64,000 bases of DNA from assembly GCF_056712565.1 (NCBI RefSeq), contig NZ_CM160072.1; one strand, given 5' to 3'. Shown one piece after another: positions 12,744 to 47,424 of this stretch. The notes beneath the pieces are model-generated. The model was given only the letters and a program-made list of their open reading frames with translations. It did not search any database and had not been told where the DNA came from. A program made the translations under genes and the position numbers. Numbering within the stretch: the first letter of the stretch is position 1; every line of letters starts with the position of its first letter.

Positions 12744-12755
12744 CACGCTACCGCC
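12744..12755 (-). promoter_or_regulatory. ops element (RfaH loading site) within the JUMPstart of the wza leader
   Basis: The minus strand reads GGCGGTAGCGTG, an exact match to the ops consensus, about 180 nt upstream of the wza ATG. Confidence 0.8.
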
Positions 12756-13223
12756 CCTGGCTTTTTAGCTACCAATACACTGATTTAGCTTAATTTTTAA
12801 AACCCTCTCAACATACAGTCGTTGATGAGAAAGGGTTATTGCGGAAATTAACTTCCGAATATAAGGTGACATTATGGTAATTGAATATTGGCTCTCCAAT
12901 AATGCAGGAGGAAGTGTTACAGCTAACGGAATAGCAGGCAAGGTAACAATTCGGCAATTGGCTATTTTTAAGAATTATATTAAGTGTCATTCAATATGGT
13001 TTTTAGGAGTTTCTTTAGGTTGACAATATTTAATATAGTGTCTCCACATGCGATATTTCTTAAATAATGTTTTATTATTACCACTTTTAATTCAGGGATA
13101 ATGTGAGGTTATTACCCTCAAATAATATGAGATAAATAGTGCTGCAACATTGCATTTTTGCCCCGATTTATCCATGATCGAATTGTGACATTTGTCATAC
13201 AACGAATAGGTTTTGTACTTACT

Positions 13224-23336: not shown

Positions 23337-23469
23337 CGCATCTCCTTGTTAATCCGCTTTCAGCATAAACGTTATTCAGACGCTGCGCTTTGCTTTCATA
23401 TTCCGGTTGTCGCGACGGCAACATTTCGCTAAAGTCACGCCCCTTCTTCACCGGCATGGGGATTATTTC

Positions 23470-24822
23470 GTGTTTATTGGTTTTGATTACGGTACAGCAA
23501 ACTGTTCAGTGGCGGTCATGCGCGACGGTAAACCGCATTTGCTAAAAATGGAAAACGACAGCACGCTGCTGCCTTCAATGCTTTGCGCGCCAACGCGTGA
23601 AGCGGTAAGCGAATGGCTGTACCGCCATCATGACGTTCCGGCAGACGACGATGAAACGCAGGCGCTGCTGCGTCGGGCGATTCGTTATAACCGCGAAGAA
23701 GATATCGATGTTACGGCGAAAAGCGTGCAGTTCGGTCTTTCCTCACTGGCACAGTACATTGATGATCCAGAAGAGGTGTGGTTTGTGAAATCACCAAAAT
23801 CGTTCCTCGGTGCCAGCGGCTTAAAACCGCAGCAGGTAGCGCTGTTTGAGGATCTGGTCTGCGCAATGATGTTGCACATTCGCCAGCAGGCGCAGGCTCA
23901 ACTGCCGGAGGCAATTACTCAGGCAGTGATTGGTCGCCCGATCAACTTCCAGGGGCTGGGCAGCGATGAAGCAAACACCCAGGCGCAAGGGATTCTGGAA
24001 CGCGCGGCGAAGCGTGCCGGGTTTAAGGATGTGGTATTCCAGTACGAGCCGGTCGCGGCTGGGCTGGATTACGAAGCCACCTTGCAGGAAGAAAAACGGG
24101 TGCTGGTGGTGGATATCGGCGGTGGTACGACTGACTGTTCTTTACTGCTAATGGGGCCACAGTGGCGTTCGCGCCTCGATCGTGAAGCCAGCCTGCTGGG
24201 TCACAGTGGTTGCCGTATTGGCGGTAACGATCTGGATATCGCACTGGCGTTTAAAAACCTGATGCCGTTACTGGGCATGGGTGGCGAAACCGAAAAAGGC
24301 ATCGCGCTGCCGATTCTGCCGTGGTGGAATGCGGTTGCCATCAACGACGTCCCTGCGCAAAGTGATTTCTACAGTAGTGCCAATGGTCGTCTGCTTAACG
24401 ATCTGGTACGCGATGCCCGCGAACCGGAAAAAGTGGCCCTGTTACAGAAAGTCTGGCGTCAGCGTTTAAGCTATCGCCTGGTACGTAGCGCAGAAGAGAG
24501 CAAAATTGCGCTTTCAAGCGTAGCGGAAACCCGCGCCTCACTGCCGTTTATCAGCGATGAACTGGCTACGCTGATTAGCCAGCAAGGGCTGGAAAGCGCC
24601 CTCAACCAGCCACTGGCGCGAATTCTGGAACAGGTGCAACTGGCGCTGGATAACGCCCAGGAAAAACCGGATGTCATCTATCTGACTGGTGGTAGCGCCC
24701 GATCGCCGCTGATTAAAAAAGCGCTGGCAGAACAGTTGCCGGGCATTCCGATTGCAGGCGGCGATGACTTTGGCTCCGTCACCGCCGGGCTGGCACGCTG
24801 GGCGGAAGTGGTGTTTCGTTAA
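23470..24822 (+). CDS. yegD: Hsp70/actin-fold ATPase YegD
   Basis: GTG start gives (M)FIGFDYGTANCSVAVM and 450 aa. DnaK-like phosphate-1 motif and DIGGGTTD. Confidence 0.88.
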   Translation: MFIGFDYGTANCSVAVMRDGKPHLLKMENDSTLLPSMLCAPTREAVSEWLYRHHDVPADDDETQALLRRAIRYNREEDIDVTAKSVQFGLSSLAQYIDDPEEVWFVKSPKSFLGASGLKPQQVALFEDLVCAMMLHIRQQAQAQLPEAITQAVIGRPINFQGLGSDEANTQAQGILERAAKRAGFKDVVFQYEPVAAGLDYEATLQEEKRVLVVDIGGGTTDCSLLLMGPQWRSRLDREASLLGHSGCRIGGNDLDIALAFKNLMPLLGMGGETEKGIALPILPWWNAVAINDVPAQSDFYSSANGRLLNDLVRDAREPEKVALLQKVWRQRLSYRLVRSAEESKIALSSVAETRASLPFISDELATLISQQGLESALNQPLARILEQVQLALDNAQEKPDVIYLTGGSARSPLIKKALAEQLPGIPIAGGDDFGSVTAGLARWAEVVFR

Positions 24823-24834
24823 TTGAAAAATGGC

Positions 24835-26775
24835 TCAGCAGCGGCTTAAATCAGCCTTCGCCTGAGCCAGTTTTTCTGCCGCCTGACGTAGCGGCTCCAT
24901 CAACGGCATGGTCCGTGCTGGAGCATGAAGGCGGAATCGCTGCAACTCTGTCGCACCGACAGTCAACGCCGATTCCAGCCGATGTCGTTTGGCGGTCATT
25001 TTCGCCATTACCGCTTGTCTGTCTGCTGGCGTTACCGCTTCATTCGGCCTGAACACAAAACGGCGTTCGCAACTCGCTTTCCAGTCGATAACCGCCTGGG
25101 TCAGATGATCACCAAAACCTTTTACTTGCTTAACGCTCCGTCGGGTAACGTCTGCCGCCGTTTCAATACCAAAGGACCGTAACGCCGCTTTACGCGCAGG
25201 GCCAACGCCGGGAATAGAGGCAACATCAATAAAAAATCCCTCCAGAAACTTCTGCTTCTGCCGTTCCCTTGCGGTGTCCTGAAGTGCTGCCAGATCGCGC
25301 TTTTCTTCTTCCGGTAACCCAAGAATTTCGTCCTTCATTTTTTCGAGCCTCGCCCGTTTGGCGATAAAACCTTCCAGCCCGCCCAACTGCTGGATCTGGC
25401 TGACTAAATGGTCATAGTCCATTTTCGCGCGATTAAACGCCTCACGGCGTTGCTGGATTTCTGCTTTGTACGCTTTGCTTGTCAGGCTGCCAATAATCCA
25501 GATAGCCGCCAGCACAGGAATCAAAATAATATAACTCGGTTCTGCCTGAAGGCCGCAAAACAACAGCGATAACGCTGACAGTGCGATCTCAATCAGAATG
25601 ATGTATTCGCGCCGTAACAGGCCTAAAGGAAGCGACCTGCCAGTCGGTTGGAAATGATCGGGTAATGGCAATTGCAATGCTGGCGGTGCTACTGATGCCA
25701 TCACCATCGCCCAGACTCTCGCCAGCACAAAATCACCGCCGGTGGTAATGACCTCTTCACCGAGATCAATAAAATAGATAACGCCTTGATTATCCAGCGC
25801 ACACCACGGGCAGTCAGTCAAATGAGCGGGGTAAACATGCATTGCCGAAACGGTACATTTCTTTAACTGTTGGCGTAGTAAATCAAGTGCCGCTACCCAC
25901 GCTTTTGCCGTCGGACGCCCGGTTGCCACGCCACTTTCCGTGAATGCCTGCTGAAACATGGCTTCAACATCGCCCGGTAACATCGACAGCGGAATCGATC
26001 GTGGCGGCGGTTTTAAACCACGTCGCTGATTATCTGAGGCGTAGGCATAACGGAAATGGGCAATATCCGTCTCCAGCGCATTACCTGCATCAGAGATAAG
26101 CGGTACACCGGAATAAGGATGCCGCCCACCAAACAAGATGTGAAATATCAGCAACGCAAGGCCAAAATTATCGTGATTTTCTGTGCGTTCAAAGCCGACA
26201 AATGATGGCATGGTTTGCAGCTCTGGCGGCGTAAAATGCGACACGCCGACTTCGCATAAATGCAGTGTACCATTGGCATTAATCTGAAAGGAGTCGCTAT
26301 CAATCAACACCACTTTGCTGTCGCGACCTACCATAAAGCTGTTCTGGTTTACGTCACCCACGACGTGCCCGTGCTCATGAACAGTAGCAAAAGATGAAGC
26401 AATATTGCGCGCAACATAGAGTAGAAAATCCCACGCACAATGAGGGTAACTCTGGCGACGATGTGCCGGGCTATAGATCATATGAATCGGTTCTTTACCA
26501 GAAACTTTTGGCATCATAAAACCGATAACTTTTCCGCCTCGTCCACCGTGAAGCGTTGCCTGCGGCCAGGCGACATAATTCAACAACTGCGCGTCAGCTG
26601 TCGCAGCCATAAAGGCAAGTTTGTCCTGTTTTAAGGCGGGTGGCGGCGTGTGATAAATCTTGGCGACGCTATCGACAAACTCCTCGATATCATAAACCGC
26701 ACCTTCGCCGCCTTTGCCCAGTTCACGGCCAGGCGTAACGCACTCACCAGTAGCAGTATATAAAGTGGGTTTCAT
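24835..26775 (-). CDS. yegI: Eukaryotic-like Ser/Thr protein kinase with 2 TM helices, a coiled coil and C-terminal helix-hairpin-helix motifs
   Basis: Gly-rich loop GKGGEGAVY, Lys in VAKIY, catalytic loop GDVNQNS, DSD for DFG. TM segments YIILIEIALSALSLLFCGL and ILIPVLAAIWIIGSL. HhH motifs IPGVGPARKAALRSFGI and VKGFGDHL. The ATG at 26775 forms an ATGA overlap with the yegK stop; the track uses a GTG 9 nt upstream. Confidence 0.88.
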   Translation of the reverse strand: MKPTLYTATGECVTPGRELGKGGEGAVYDIEEFVDSVAKIYHTPPPALKQDKLAFMAATADAQLLNYVAWPQATLHGGRGGKVIGFMMPKVSGKEPIHMIYSPAHRRQSYPHCAWDFLLYVARNIASSFATVHEHGHVVGDVNQNSFMVGRDSKVVLIDSDSFQINANGTLHLCEVGVSHFTPPELQTMPSFVGFERTENHDNFGLALLIFHILFGGRHPYSGVPLISDAGNALETDIAHFRYAYASDNQRRGLKPPPRSIPLSMLPGDVEAMFQQAFTESGVATGRPTAKAWVAALDLLRQQLKKCTVSAMHVYPAHLTDCPWCALDNQGVIYFIDLGEEVITTGGDFVLARVWAMVMASVAPPALQLPLPDHFQPTGRSLPLGLLRREYIILIEIALSALSLLFCGLQAEPSYIILIPVLAAIWIIGSLTSKAYKAEIQQRREAFNRAKMDYDHLVSQIQQLGGLEGFIAKRARLEKMKDEILGLPEEEKRDLAALQDTARERQKQKFLEGFFIDVASIPGVGPARKAALRSFGIETAADVTRRSVKQVKGFGDHLTQAVIDWKASCERRFVFRPNEAVTPADRQAVMAKMTAKRHRLESALTVGATELQRFRLHAPARTMPLMEPLRQAAEKLAQAKADLSRC

Positions 26776-27533
26776 GGTAACCACAGCGCCAGTGCCAACG
26801 TTTTATCATCATCCGTACGCTCGTTTACCGCCGGGCTGGACAAAAACTGCTTTAACAATTCAGGTAATAAATCGAGTTGTTCCTGCGTTGCTGACGCCAG
26901 TCCATTGAAAAACGGGGTAAAGAAAGGCACATGCGGAGAATTATCCAGCATATTTAACGCCAGTCGCTGAATACCATCCGTAAATGCTGCAACTTTGTGC
27001 GCACGCTCAGTGCTGGTGAAAGTTTCCAGTCTGGAAACGGCATCTTCATCGGTAATGAAGTGCGTCATATTGGTATATTCACCCACCATCGGCGTGAGCG
27101 GCAGTTGCAAACCGTGCCCCAAATCTACCACCACGCCGCCATCGCCAATCTGCATAATCAAGGTGCCATTAGCTGATGAAATCAATCCCAAAAACGTGCA
27201 GGCAAAATCGCGAACCGCTAATTCTTTGGCTTCCGCCTCGGCAAAAAGTCGCTGACGAATGGTCAGCACAATGTCCGTTGCGAGGACATCATTAAGCCCC
27301 AATTCCCCGCCCTGCATTTTTTGCGACATATAAGCCATCGCTTCATTGACGGCGAGCATCGCACCTTCGCCACCCTGCGAGACGCTGCCTGCGCCATCAG
27401 CGACAAATACCGACAATAATGGCTGCTGGTCATTTAGCCAGGCAACCTGCATCTGGCAGGCATCCTGGCAAGGCAAATCAGCGCTAATATGCGACGTTCC
27501 AACGGCTGATGCATAGACCAGTCGCCAGCTCAC
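26772..27533 (-). CDS. yegK: PP2C-family Ser/Thr phosphatase
   Basis: 253 aa. PP2C-like acidic metal motifs (CQDA, VADGAGS, QIGDGG, FTDG). GTGA overlap with the yegL stop. Confidence 0.85.
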
Positions 27534-28189
27534 ACTGACGTCCAGCCTTTTGGCGCTTCCAGCACAACTTCCGTTCCCGGCGTGGAGCGGGAAACCGAAC
27601 GCAGCGAACTGGATAACCAGCTAAACAGTTCACGGAATTGTAATCCCTGCAGAGACAAAGGCTGACGGACGCTGATTTGGGCCAGCGTCTTCATATCCGC
27701 CCCCTGAACACCGATGGTAAAGAAGGCAAACTTCTTATCTTCTTCCCCCTGAAACACTTTGTTGGCGGCAGCCTGCCACTCATCGGTTGGTGCGCCATCG
27801 GTGATCAGGAAAATCCACGGACGATAATAGGAAATACCATTGGCACGATATTCACGTTTCCGCTCCTCAACCATATCCAGGGCTTTGGTAATGGCAGCGC
27901 CCATTGGTGTATCGCCCTGGGCAAACAGGATGGGCGGGAAAAAATTAGCGGCGCTGGTAAAGGGTTGTTCCACATGCACCGGGCCGAACGTCACAATGCC
28001 GAGTTCCACTCTTTTTAAGGCCAGCGAATCGGCAAGCAGCTCATCGCGAAAGGTAACCAATCCGGTGTTAAGTTCATTAATGGGTCTGCCGCTCATCGAG
28101 CCAGAAACATCCAGCAGCAAAATGCAGGGGCAACGTGGTTCCGGGTTACTGGCAAAATCGCTGGTGGCAAACGTGATTTGTTCGCTCAT
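27530..28189 (-). CDS. yegL: von Willebrand factor A (TerY-like) protein
   Basis: 219 aa. MIDAS motif [11 protein letters not shown], later TDG. Confidence 0.85.
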
Positions 28190-28369
28190 AAGAAATCCTT
28201 TCTTAGAGAATTATTGAGGTCCGGTATCATACCGATTGCAATAATGAAATAAGAGCAAACGAAGAAACTTTCAGAATTAGGCCCGGCGGCGCAGAAAATT
28301 TTGCTATTCGCCTCGCAAGAACGGAGAGCCGTCGATTGACACTAAGGGCGGAGTGACATAATTTCAGGA

Positions 28370-28508
28370 GTGAGGGTAGAGCGGGGTTTCCCCCGCCCTG
28401 GTAGTCTTAGTAAGCTGGCCAGCTAATGACTAAGAGCACCACGATGATGAGTAGCTTCATCATGACCCTTTCCTTATTTAAGGCCCCTTCCTCGGGAGGG
28501 GCTTTCCC
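28370..28508 (+). ncRNA. sibA: Sib antisense sRNA, copy 1 (ends approximate)
   Basis: Promoter TTGACA (28336-28341), 17 nt, TAATTT. Fully antisense to the ibs ORF. Terminator GGCCCCTTCCTCGGGAGGGGC plus a T-rich tail. Confidence 0.7.
28407..28463 (-). CDS. ibsA: Ibs type I toxin, 18-aa hydrophobic peptide, copy 1
   Basis: Hand translation gives MMKLLIIVVLLVISWPAY*. Too short for the ORF track. Confidence 0.75.
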   Translation of the reverse strand: MMKLLIIVVLLVISWPAY

Positions 28509-28696
28509 GTTTCAGCGTCCCGCTGAAATCTTCGGCTTACCTCCTTTCGCCCTGTATGCAGTCTATCGCTGACTTGCGGATAAAATAGTTTCAAGTGTGA
28601 TTATTGCGTAACGACTCGCAAAGAATATTTGCTGGCAGGATCGCAGACTGCAAAGTCTGCGGATTGACAATTGGACCGTGAAGGCATACTTTCAGG

Positions 28697-28836
28697 AGTG
28701 AGGGTAGAGCGGGGTTTCCCCCGCCCTGGTAGTCTTAGTATGCTGGGTAGCTAATGACTAAGAGCACCACGATGATGAGTATCTTCATCATGACCCTTTC
28801 CTTATTTAAGGCCCCTTCCTCGGGAGGGGCTTTTCC
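28697..28836 (+). ncRNA. sibB: Sib antisense sRNA, copy 2 (ends approximate)
   Basis: Second unit about 328 bp downstream. TTGACA at 28664-28669 and the same terminator hairpin at 28810-28834. Confidence 0.7.
28735..28791 (-). CDS. ibsB: Ibs type I toxin, 18-aa peptide, copy 2
   Basis: Hand translation gives MMKILIIVVLLVISYPAY*. Confidence 0.75.
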   Translation of the reverse strand: MMKILIIVVLLVISYPAY

Positions 28837-47253: not shown

Positions 47254-47337
47254 TTAATTTCGATTATTTTTCCCGGATGGAAAATTCTTAGAAACCGATC
47301 ACATACAGCTGCATTTATTAAGGTTATCATCCGTTTC

Positions 47338-47424
47338 GCTGAAAAACATAACCCATAAAATGCTAGCTGTACCAGGAACCACCTCCTTAGCCTGTGTAAT
47401 CTCCCTTACGCAGGCTTATTTTTT
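47338..47424 (+). ncRNA. cyaR: CyaR (RyeE) Hfq-dependent sRNA
   Basis: GCTGAAAAACATAACCCATAAAATGCTAGCTGTACCAGGAACCACCTCCTTAGCCTGTGTAATCTCCCTTACGCAGGCTTATTTTTT. 87 nt, matching the remembered CyaR almost base for base, including the terminator. Confidence 0.9.

Follow-up and report, generated by a model that had tools for sequence, protein, structure and literature searches.

Phosphorylation triads and the yegL-pphC-yegI operon

[quoted passage not shown] According to PMC11090510, the triad was first proposed as a metal-sensing phosphorylation switch, and the C-terminus of its kinase carries a Zn ribbon in the CoCoNuT-associated examples and an OB fold in the stand-alone versions. The stand-alone versions are reported there as validated anti-phage systems (Gao et al. 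2020), active against T7-like phages. Members of these three enzyme classes are encoded in Escherichia coli by the genes yegL, pphC (also called yegK) and yegI, which are considered here in a 64,000-nucleotide stretch of contig NZ_CM160072.1 (assembly GCF_056712565.1). This whole stretch is called the window. Both the TerY-P concept and the definitions of COG4245 and COG4248 already cover this architecture. The long-standing definition of COG4248 is that of a kinase with helix-hairpin-helix (HhH) motifs, and COG4245 stands for the R478-type vWA protein, both being annotation labels only. The layout of a kinase followed by an HhH tail, which the original prediction on this locus regarded as unusual, is therefore an established one.

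Ser/Thr kinases are very few in E. coli, and only YegI is paired with a PP2C phosphatase of its own, PphC. YegI was shown to be an active Ser/Thr kinase, which prefers Mn2+ and autophosphorylates, though it lacks the HRD and DFG motifs (Rajagopalan and Dworkin, FEBS Lett 2020; bioRxiv 10.1101/819920). In that work the autophosphorylation sites were assigned to S153, S160 and S162, and to S602 and S644 of the terminal helix (numbering of the paper), with second-order kinetics that are consistent with a dimer. The clones were derived from strain REL606, whose YegI also has 646 residues. PphC is an active phosphatase that strips the phosphates from YegI (Rajagopalan, Nagle and Dworkin, J Bacteriol 2018; bioRxiv 10.1101/303594). 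The PhoA-LacZ fusions of the Rajagopalan/Dworkin studies place YegI in the inner membrane as a two-pass protein with both termini in the cytoplasm.

The analysis described below shows that the three genes constitute a self-contained module present in at least six phyla, and that the kinase ends in a tail with a probable (HhH)2 fold. The reading preferred here, to which a probability of about one half is given, is that YegL, PphC and YegI act together as a phospho-switch triggered by DNA at the membrane.

The locus occupies positions 24835-28189 on the minus strand of the window and consists of three open reading frames (ORFs):

Positions 27530-28189, minus strand: yegL, 219 residues from an ATG start, a TerY-like vWA protein with a metal ion-dependent adhesion site (MIDAS)
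Positions 26772-27533, minus strand: pphC (yegK), 253 residues from a GTG start, a PP2C-type Ser/Thr phosphatase
Positions 24835-26775, minus strand: yegI, 646 residues from an ATG start, a membrane-anchored atypical Ser/Thr kinase

The genes are joined by two overlaps of 4 nt. At the first junction, read on the minus strand from 27533 to 27530 as GTGA, the GTG start of pphC overlaps the stop of yegL, and at the second, read from 26775 to 26772 as ATGA, the ATG of yegI overlaps the stop of pphC. The original prediction had placed both overlaps at exactly these coordinates. Its identification of the products as a vWA protein with an intact MIDAS (DVSGSMSG), a PP2C phosphatase and a kinase of 646 residues agrees with Pfam, Foldseek and RefSeq, and the published work bears out its description of YegI and YegK as a kinase-phosphatase pair. 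The list of ORFs offers an alternative start of yegI at an upstream GTG (26784). The homologues of YegI all begin with M-x-x-T-L-Y/F-T, and because they all begin at the position of the ATG, this codon is taken as the start.

The locus is 100% identical to the corresponding stretch of E. coli ZJ3920, in which RefSeq annotates yegD, yegI ('protein kinase YegI'), pphC, yegL, two ibs toxin genes and mdtA in this order, with no yegJ. The YegI of the window shares 95-96% identity with the deposited E. coli YegI proteins. The locus is the already described E. coli yegL-pphC-yegI operon in its intact ancestral form, which lacks yegJ; the existing annotation is correct and the locus itself is ordinary.

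Conservation of the triad as a unit

The distribution of the triad was followed in about 185,000 representative genomes, one for each species. Relatives of YegI were found in 440 of them, and the best 80 loci were fetched. These 80 loci span Escherichia, Shigella, a few Klebsiella and Serratia, many Betaproteobacteria, Pseudomonas and Chromatiales, and also Desulfobacterota, Geothrix (Acidobacteriota), Nitrospira, Verrucomicrobia, Planctomycetes, and Frankia and Georgenia (Actinomycetota). The triad is present in at least six phyla. When the window proteins were compared with the loci by tblastn, yegL, yegK and yegI were found in the same order and on the same strand in 71 of the 80. Several of the nine loci without a full triad are cut by contig ends (e.g., L049 and L070) or contain truncated matches (e.g., the two from Shigella flexneri). 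The 4-nt overlap of yegL and yegK is kept in 69 of the 71 complete triads, and because these come from many phyla, its preservation exceeds chance. The gap between yegK and yegI mostly amounts to 0-27 nt. Such linkage outside the Enterobacteriaceae, which had been named as a check on the original prediction, is thus found in many phyla, and the TerY-P-type architecture that it proposed holds for three genes conserved as a unit.

All-against-all clustering of the flanking ORFs gave only three conserved families; the other recurrent clusters were antisense shadow ORFs within the triad or Escherichia-specific genes. The clustering revealed no conserved fourth gene, and neither did scanning the 113 genes nearest to the triad with Pfam and PADLOC. 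The Hsp70-like gene yegD, whose co-occurrence with the triad had been suggested as a further check, adjoins it in all eight Escherichia/Shigella loci and in none of the 72 others. The inclusion of yegD in the triad was ruled out, as the linkage is limited to Escherichia and Shigella. The triad is a self-contained three-gene module, and the unit of function is formed by the three genes, with yegD outside it.

Within E. coli, 5416 of 5426 complete genomes contain a match to the locus, which covers at least 80% of the query in 5400 genomes. The ratio of nonsynonymous to synonymous substitution rates (dN/dS) within Escherichia is 0.02-0.13 for yegL, pphC and yegI. Such low values indicate purifying selection and no decay of the three genes. 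The G+C content of the locus is 48-58% and shows no break; an island-like composition was therefore ruled out, and the island-like flavour ascribed to the region by the original prediction does not agree with this composition or with the near-universal presence of the locus. An origin from phages was also ruled out, with one weak partial match among 50,697 phage records. Kinases of the YegI type are carried by about 40 plasmids and megaplasmids outside E. coli, among them pQBR103 and replicons of rhizobia, Deinococcus and Cupriavidus.

The immediate neighbours of the triad, 113 genes in 57 other genomes, were surveyed with no matched control set. Genes of defence systems or mobile elements are a minority among them, namely those for the R subunit of a type I restriction system, Wadjet JetA, QatA, MADS mad3/mad8, PDC-S35, a KAP NTPase, DDE transposases and TraC, and in total about 8 of the 113 are defence genes. 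In Sphingobium sp. RAC03, the triad on plasmid pBSY17_2 is preceded by a HerA/FtsK-like ATPase and followed by a tyrosine recombinase and a GIY-YIG nuclease. In Pseudomonas aeruginosa ATCC 27853, the genes of COG4245 and COG4248 are strain-specific, and their locus tags (ACG06_22770 and ACG06_22780) are two apart and close to the tag of a type I restriction subunit; both COGs are listed in a second paper as well. These neighbourhoods outside E. coli are suggestive, short of proof, of conflict systems.

A DUF4236 protein adjoins the triad in five to six unrelated genomes (for instance L018, 5294-6424, minus strand, divergently upstream), and another is encoded in the IncHI2 ter cluster (L083, 6838-8046), beside the terW and TerY vWA genes; DUF4236 may be a recurrent accessory partner that joins the triad and the ter systems. 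The two Shigella flexneri loci (L004 and L057) have truncated matches, e.g., a YegK of 193 residues, a YegI of 255 residues and a YegL with 54% identity over 166 residues, which is consistent with pseudogenisation of the triad. A deposited E. coli protein of 602 residues (P0035) has a Pfam match to PP2C and spans 74% of YegI, and appears to be a PphC-YegI fusion or an internal-deletion allele. In Candidatus Methylophosphatis (L053), the match covers YegI residues 1-338 only, and a further ORF of the YegI cluster lies about 6 kb downstream, extending to 14966; the kinase gene may have been split there by an insertion.

The YegI kinase and its membrane-adjacent tail

YegI can be divided into six consecutive parts, which are listed from the N-terminus to the C-terminus, with their positions in the window:

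Positions 25876-26775, minus strand: kinase domain, approximately residues 1-300, assigned by Foldseek and invariant catalytic residues
Positions 25786-25866, minus strand: Zn-ribbon-like motif, approximately residues 304-330, C307-x5-H313-x8-C322-P-W-C325
Positions 25471-25614, minus strand: two-helix membrane hairpin, approximately residues 388-435, with a 3-residue loop (EPS)
Positions 25240-25470, minus strand: long cytoplasmic helices, approximately residues 436-512, running on from the second transmembrane (TM) helix
Positions 25060-25233, minus strand: two probable HhH motifs, approximately residues 515-572, IPGVGPARKAAL and VKGFGDHLTQAV
Positions 24841-25029, minus strand: terminal helix of about 63 residues (583-645), AlphaFold2 (AF2) pLDDT (predicted local distance difference test) score 76-94

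The kinase domain contains the G-loop GKGGEG (residues 20-25), a VAK motif with K39, and TPPE (182-185). VGDVNQNS, with D141, stands in the place of HRDxKxxN, and DSD (159-161) in the place of DFG. This catalytic signature is invariant in 63 homologues. The Pfam scan of YegI gave no significant Pkinase match, its sole match being a sub-threshold one to HHH_5; in distant homologues the Pkinase match reaches 1e-6, yet stays below the cut-off. The full-length AF2 model, built on 63 homologues, averages a pLDDT of 69 and has low values in the C-lobe of the kinase. Its top Foldseek matches in the PDB are eukaryotic-type kinases (E of about 4e-6, probability 1.0). The kinase assignment holds because of this structural match, the invariant signature and the published enzymology. 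Weak local matches to the kinase domains of lanthionine synthetases and to DNA polymerase IV, in its HhH region, were all that NCBIfam gave. A profile search of solved structures found no close relative, with marginal matches to the TTK kinase (E=0.02) and to HhH-like stretches of Pol IV and L32e (E=0.1-0.9).

The kinase domain is followed by a short motif that was missing from the original prediction, as was the terminal helix of about 60 residues. Residues C307, H313, C322, W324 and C325 of this motif are invariant in the 63 homologues, and AF2 places two short strands (304-306 and 314-316) and a helix (323-329) there. No Pfam model matches the C307-H313-C322-C325 motif. By analogy with the C-terminus of the TerY-P kinases, it looks like a small Zn ribbon.

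The two TM helices noted in the original prediction are present in YegI, as are its GVGPARKAAL and KGFGDHL motifs. Hydropathy gives two 19-residue peaks at about 389-411 and 410-435, and the hairpin is modelled by AF2 as helices 389-408 and 413 onward. The original prediction put the kinase and the tail on opposite sides of the membrane anchor, which is right for the linear sequence and wrong in space, as both termini are cytoplasmic. With this hairpin and these termini, the kinase and the tail lie side by side at the inner membrane face, and the same topology leaves no extracytoplasmic sensor domain. Beyond the hairpin, AF2 predicts helices at 413-465, 467-485, 487-500 and 502-512 with a pLDDT of 81-94, and residues of about 436-512 form a putative coiled-coil or dimerisation stalk.

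The stalk leads into the HhH region, in which GVGPARKAAL begins at residue 523 and KGFGDHL at residue 552. The hairpins PGVGP and KGFGD are invariant in the homologues, and the pLDDT of the region in the full-length model is 87-93. HHH_5 is matched in 26 of the 63 homologues, every time below the cut-off. A core profile was built from YegI residues 508-578 (71 residues) and, with a threshold of E <= 1e-3, matched 2125 cluster representatives. Among the relatives found in this way, 28 of the 91 that were scanned have HHH_5 matches, with a best E of 1.9e-8, and one of them also has a UPF0758 N-terminal domain. Through such relatives the HhH assignment is probably correct, being supported transitively, and an (HhH)2 fold in the tail of YegI is probable; DNA binding by this tail is plausible. 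Many members of the YegI family are named by NCBI 'helix-hairpin-helix domain-containing protein'. The homologue on the Sphingobium plasmid pBSY17_2 (L084, 3956-6115, plus strand; 719 residues, 33% identity, collinear over YegI 16-643) ends with an extra Zn ribbon of the topoisomerase C4 type at residues 682-718 (Zn_ribbon_Top1, 32.3 bits against a cut-off of 32). In an independent genome-wide screen, overproduction of YegL and overproduction of YegI each scored as strong 'DNA-damage-up' (bioRxiv 10.1101/354589).

The tail is also encountered in proteins with no kinase. Such a module is present in P0220, P0223, P0225, P0234, P0260, P0179 and P0168, all of which were matched by the core profile. 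These relatives have a membrane hairpin, a stalk, an HhH-like core and a long helix, followed by another TM helix and a Pro-rich linker, and they end in a peptidoglycan-binding domain (6 of the 10 examined) or in TPR repeats (1 of the 10). P0234 keeps a C-x-H-x-CPWC motif ahead of its hairpin. In the kinase-less proteins, the shared module had no match among the Pfam models. The occurrence of the tail outside kinases makes it an independent evolutionary module, which is always membrane-adjacent. If the peptidoglycan-binding domain of these proteins is periplasmic, their HhH-like core would be cytoplasmic, in line with the topology of YegI.

The YegL and PphC proteins

YegL matches the Pfam VWA family (2e-10). 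The motif DVSGSMSG covers residues 27-34, and the MIDAS is formed by D27-x-S29-x-S31, T94 and D131. In 57 sequences from several phyla, the MIDAS and the Ser-rich C-terminal tail are kept at 80-95% or more. This tail (window 27530-27680, residues of about 170-219) is conserved from Escherichia to Frankia and Planctomycetes. Three genes of the IncHI2 ter clusters, annotated as vWA or 'TerY-C metal binding', align with YegL in tblastn with 28-36% identity (E from 1e-10 to 6e-16), and by this comparison YegL is a genuine homologue of TerY. PphC matches PP2C_2 with 1.7e-51. The median identity across the triads is 71% for YegL, 53% for YegK and 52% for YegI, which makes YegL the most conserved of the three proteins. 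Since YegL is the most constrained and has a conserved Ser-rich tail, it is the obvious first candidate for a substrate or an adaptor of the kinase.

A proposed phospho-switch triggered by DNA at the membrane

A probable nucleic-acid-binding tail on the kinase side of the membrane leads to the hypothesis that YegI may be activated by DNA located at the membrane. In the mechanism proposed here, stalk, (HhH)2 region and terminal helix would together make up a module at the inner membrane face that dimerises and binds DNA irrespective of its sequence. DNA present at the membrane, whether foreign DNA entering the cell or chromosomal DNA that is damaged or mis-positioned, would gather several YegI molecules, and this clustering would trigger their autophosphorylation in trans. 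YegL could then serve as the phospho-acceptor through its Ser-rich tail, or as a MIDAS-dependent adaptor that relays the signal, a role assigned purely by inference. PphC would reset the switch. The output would more likely be a response to conflict or to DNA stress than routine growth signalling. For the whole of this mechanism, as a three-protein switch triggered by DNA, the odds are put at about even.

Several results weigh against this reading. The HHH_5 match of YegI itself (residues 515-551) scores 21.7 bits against a cut-off of 27. The AF2 model of the fragment 500-646 is poorer than the full-length one, with a pLDDT of 72 and 44-60 in the second hairpin, and the Foldseek search with this poor model gave no significant match (best E=1.4), its matches being to the thumb region of Y-family polymerases. 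For these two reasons, the poor fragment model and the lack of a significant Foldseek match, the HhH fold is not confirmed structurally. The comparison by hhalign of the HhH core with a two-sequence profile of Tex HHH_3 returned a probability of 0.6%, both profiles being very shallow. The fusion of the tail relatives to periplasmic peptidoglycan-binding domains could point to the biology of the envelope and not of DNA. With the PADLOC models, the triad proteins gave a match of TerY to YegL at E=0.0089 and none for YegK. The E. coli operon is a fixed, near-universal chromosomal locus of normal composition, and it is barely expressed in laboratory conditions (Rajagopalan/Dworkin; PMC13232886), which is unlike a typical, variable defence island. 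Finally, the neighbours of the triad in the 57 other genomes are heterogeneous and mostly unrelated housekeeping genes.

Alternative explanations

The triad could instead be a dedicated system against phages or plasmids, a TerY-P subtype of the abortive-infection type in which the kinase would detect injected DNA at the membrane and halt the infection by phosphorylating targets of the host or the phage. TerY-P-like modules are reported as stand-alone systems against T7-like phages in the cited summary of that work, and the patchy spread of the triad across phyla and its occurrence on plasmids would fit such a role, as would the loci that adjoin restriction, Wadjet, Qat or MADS genes or recombinases. 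YegI also gave matches to defence kinases in the PADLOC scan, which are weak and generic (MkoA, 5.6e-5; PD-T4-6, 1.9e-4). However, no TerY-P component of PADLOC is matched significantly, the triad of E. coli is core, syntenic and compositionally native, and its expression is nearly silent. The share of defence genes among the neighbours elsewhere, the roughly 8 in 113 counted with no control set, speaks against this explanation as well, and no phage phenotype of YegLKI was found in the literature searched. A dedicated defence function of this kind is doubtful.

The second alternative is signalling of the envelope or growth state, with the HhH-like region as a dimerisation or protein-docking element and YegI as a reporter of membrane or cell-wall status. 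(HhH)2 domains can serve as dimerisation modules. The same tail module accompanies peptidoglycan-binding domains (six of the ten alternative architectures) or TPR repeats in the kinase-less proteins, and the Rajagopalan/Dworkin papers describe recurrent yegI mutations in the long-term evolution experiment and expression in stationary phase. Against this, the periplasmic loop of YegI has three residues and there is no sensor domain, and the Sphingobium homologue gained a Zn ribbon of a DNA-binding type on the same tail. The screen cited above, in which overproduction of YegL or YegI raises DNA damage, and the nucleic-acid-binding tails that PMC11090510 gives for TerY-P kinases in general, are likewise at odds with a purely envelope-related role, which is considered unlikely.

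A sensor of metal or tellurite-type stress, in which the MIDAS of YegL would sense metal as was proposed for TerY in the Ter systems, is still less probable. It would account for the homology of YegL to the TerY of tellurite-resistance clusters, for the strict conservation of the MIDAS residues, for the preference of YegI for Mn2+ and for the DUF4236 proteins beside some triads and within a ter cluster, and it follows the original proposal of TerY-P as a metal-sensing switch as given in the cited summary. Apart from the triad itself, however, no family, and hence no ter family, recurs in the flanks of +/-8 kb of the 72 non-Escherichia loci, and neither TerD nor TerZ is among the listed Pfam matches of the 113 immediate neighbours. 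The MIDAS, moreover, is a general ligand-binding device and no evidence of metal sensing.

That the operon is cryptic in E. coli, a decaying remnant without any function at present, as its barely detectable laboratory transcription, the truncated matches in two Shigella flexneri loci and the tolerance of K-12 to the yegJ interruption might suggest, is highly improbable and was already disfavoured, given the match of at least 80% coverage in 5400 of 5426 genomes, the dN/dS of 0.02-0.13 for all three genes, the activity of the enzymes, and the gene order, overlaps and catalytic residues kept across phyla.

The yegJ segment and the K-12 junction

The junction between pphC and yegI differs among E. 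coli strains. The 4-nt overlap of B strains and pathogens and its interruption by yegJ in K-12 were described in both Rajagopalan/Dworkin papers (bioRxiv 10.1101/303594 and 10.1101/819920), and the strain difference is repeated in a 2026 article in RNA Biology (PMC13232886). According to the latter, YegJ binds RNase E, in the N-terminal half of the enzyme, as seen in a two-hybrid assay, and overexpression of yegJ induces yegD. The yegJ difference is thus already published, and it is neither new nor rare. The part of the window that is affected is:

Positions 26732-26780, minus strand: junction segment replaced in K-12-type strains, 49 bp in the window against 784 bp in K-12 by pairwise alignment

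In K-12, yegJ lies between yegI and pphC on the plus strand, opposite to both, and encodes a protein of 153 residues with a DUF2314 match (2.2e-25). The original prediction placed this gene correctly, as the annotation and the alignment of K-12 confirm. Its explanation by an insertion in K-12 or a clean deletion in the window strain did not stand in either form: a clean insertion and a clean deletion are both excluded, because 784 bp replace 49 bp, and it is K-12 that carries the derived form. The replacement also reaches into both neighbouring genes. PphC ends with …ALALWLP* in the window and with …ALALWAE* in K-12, the last two codons being different, and the start of YegI in K-12 is two residues longer (MKTNIKVFTSTGELTTLGR), with the first 16-18 codons of yegI changed in comparison with the window.

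The yegJ segment is present in 1934 of the 5426 complete E. coli genomes, and is chromosomal every time; about 64% of the E. coli strains therefore resemble the window. Among the 80 loci, yegJ occurs only in that of K-12-type E. coli. It is absent from E. ruysiae, E. whittamii, two further Escherichia lineages and Klebsiella spallanzanii, in all of which the stop of pphC overlaps the start of yegI. As these relatives lack yegJ and have the overlap, the coupled form is ancestral and that of K-12 is derived. The synonymous divergence between the window and K-12 over yegD-yegL is 0.14-0.18. The K-12 segment (L001, 4583-5307) brings with it a diverged yet homologous 5′ end of yegI, which suggests that recombination brought it in from a lineage that carries a related locus; none of the 80 loci was identified as the donor.

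K-12 is therefore an atypical background for this operon, since the majority form lacks yegJ and the K-12 allele alters both the N-terminus of YegI and the C-terminus of PphC. A broader and tentative extension, rated as rather doubtful, would treat YegLKI as a distinct stand-alone membrane-anchored TerY-P subtype that senses DNA, with a tail that is an autonomous nucleic-acid-binding unit reused in kinase-less proteins. Such a subtype would have been domesticated in E. coli and uncoupled or rewired by yegJ in K-12. If this were true, the switch would serve immunity or the response to DNA stress, and the standard laboratory strain would be a natural variant in its regulation.

Other features of the window

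The ORF of yegD as called mechanically (23407-24822, plus strand) starts with TTG and has 471 residues. RefSeq and the alignment used here place the start at the ATG of 23470, which gives 450 residues (MFIGFDYGT…). Two Sib antitoxin RNAs, at 28336-28478 and 28664-28806 on the plus strand, match Rfam above the gathering score; they lie opposite the ibs genes, just upstream of yegL. Rfam matches above the gathering score were also obtained for the CyaR small RNA (47336-47421, plus strand) and for a JUMPstart element (12744-12782, minus strand).

Comparison with the known systems

In relation to the YegI/PphC pair of Rajagopalan and Dworkin, the genes are the same, and the window has their B-strain/pathogen arrangement with no material difference. 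The locus, its biochemistry, the membrane topology and the yegJ polymorphism had all been published, and this picture is unchanged; as the finding of a genome scan the locus is ordinary, and as an experimental target it is a reasonable one. Their papers do not discuss the Zn-ribbon-like motif or the HhH tail of YegI, nor YegL and how the triad is distributed beyond E. coli.

The closest class is that of TerY-P. A TerY-like vWA protein with a MIDAS, a PP2C phosphatase and a Ser/Thr kinase are found in one operon, which is conserved as a unit. With TerY-P the locus shares the three enzyme classes and the gene order, as well as mobility and an occasional position in restriction or DNA-processing neighbourhoods; its kinase tail, a candidate nucleic-acid-binding module, would fit the class too. 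The system of Gao et al. 2020 likewise unites these three enzyme classes in a single operon, with an OB fold as the kinase tail. Since the PADLOC models are not matched, the locus is not assignable to the TerY-P defence system of Gao and PADLOC. Unlike the TerY-P kinases, YegI adds a membrane hairpin, a helical stalk and the probable (HhH)2 region after its Zn-ribbon-like motif. The triad also differs in standing alone, being tied neither to McrBC/CoCoNuT nor to FtsK/WXG or ter genes in the 80 loci, and in being a core locus of E. coli. Judged by these sequence features, YegLKI is a separate branch of the TerY-P class and not the validated defence system.

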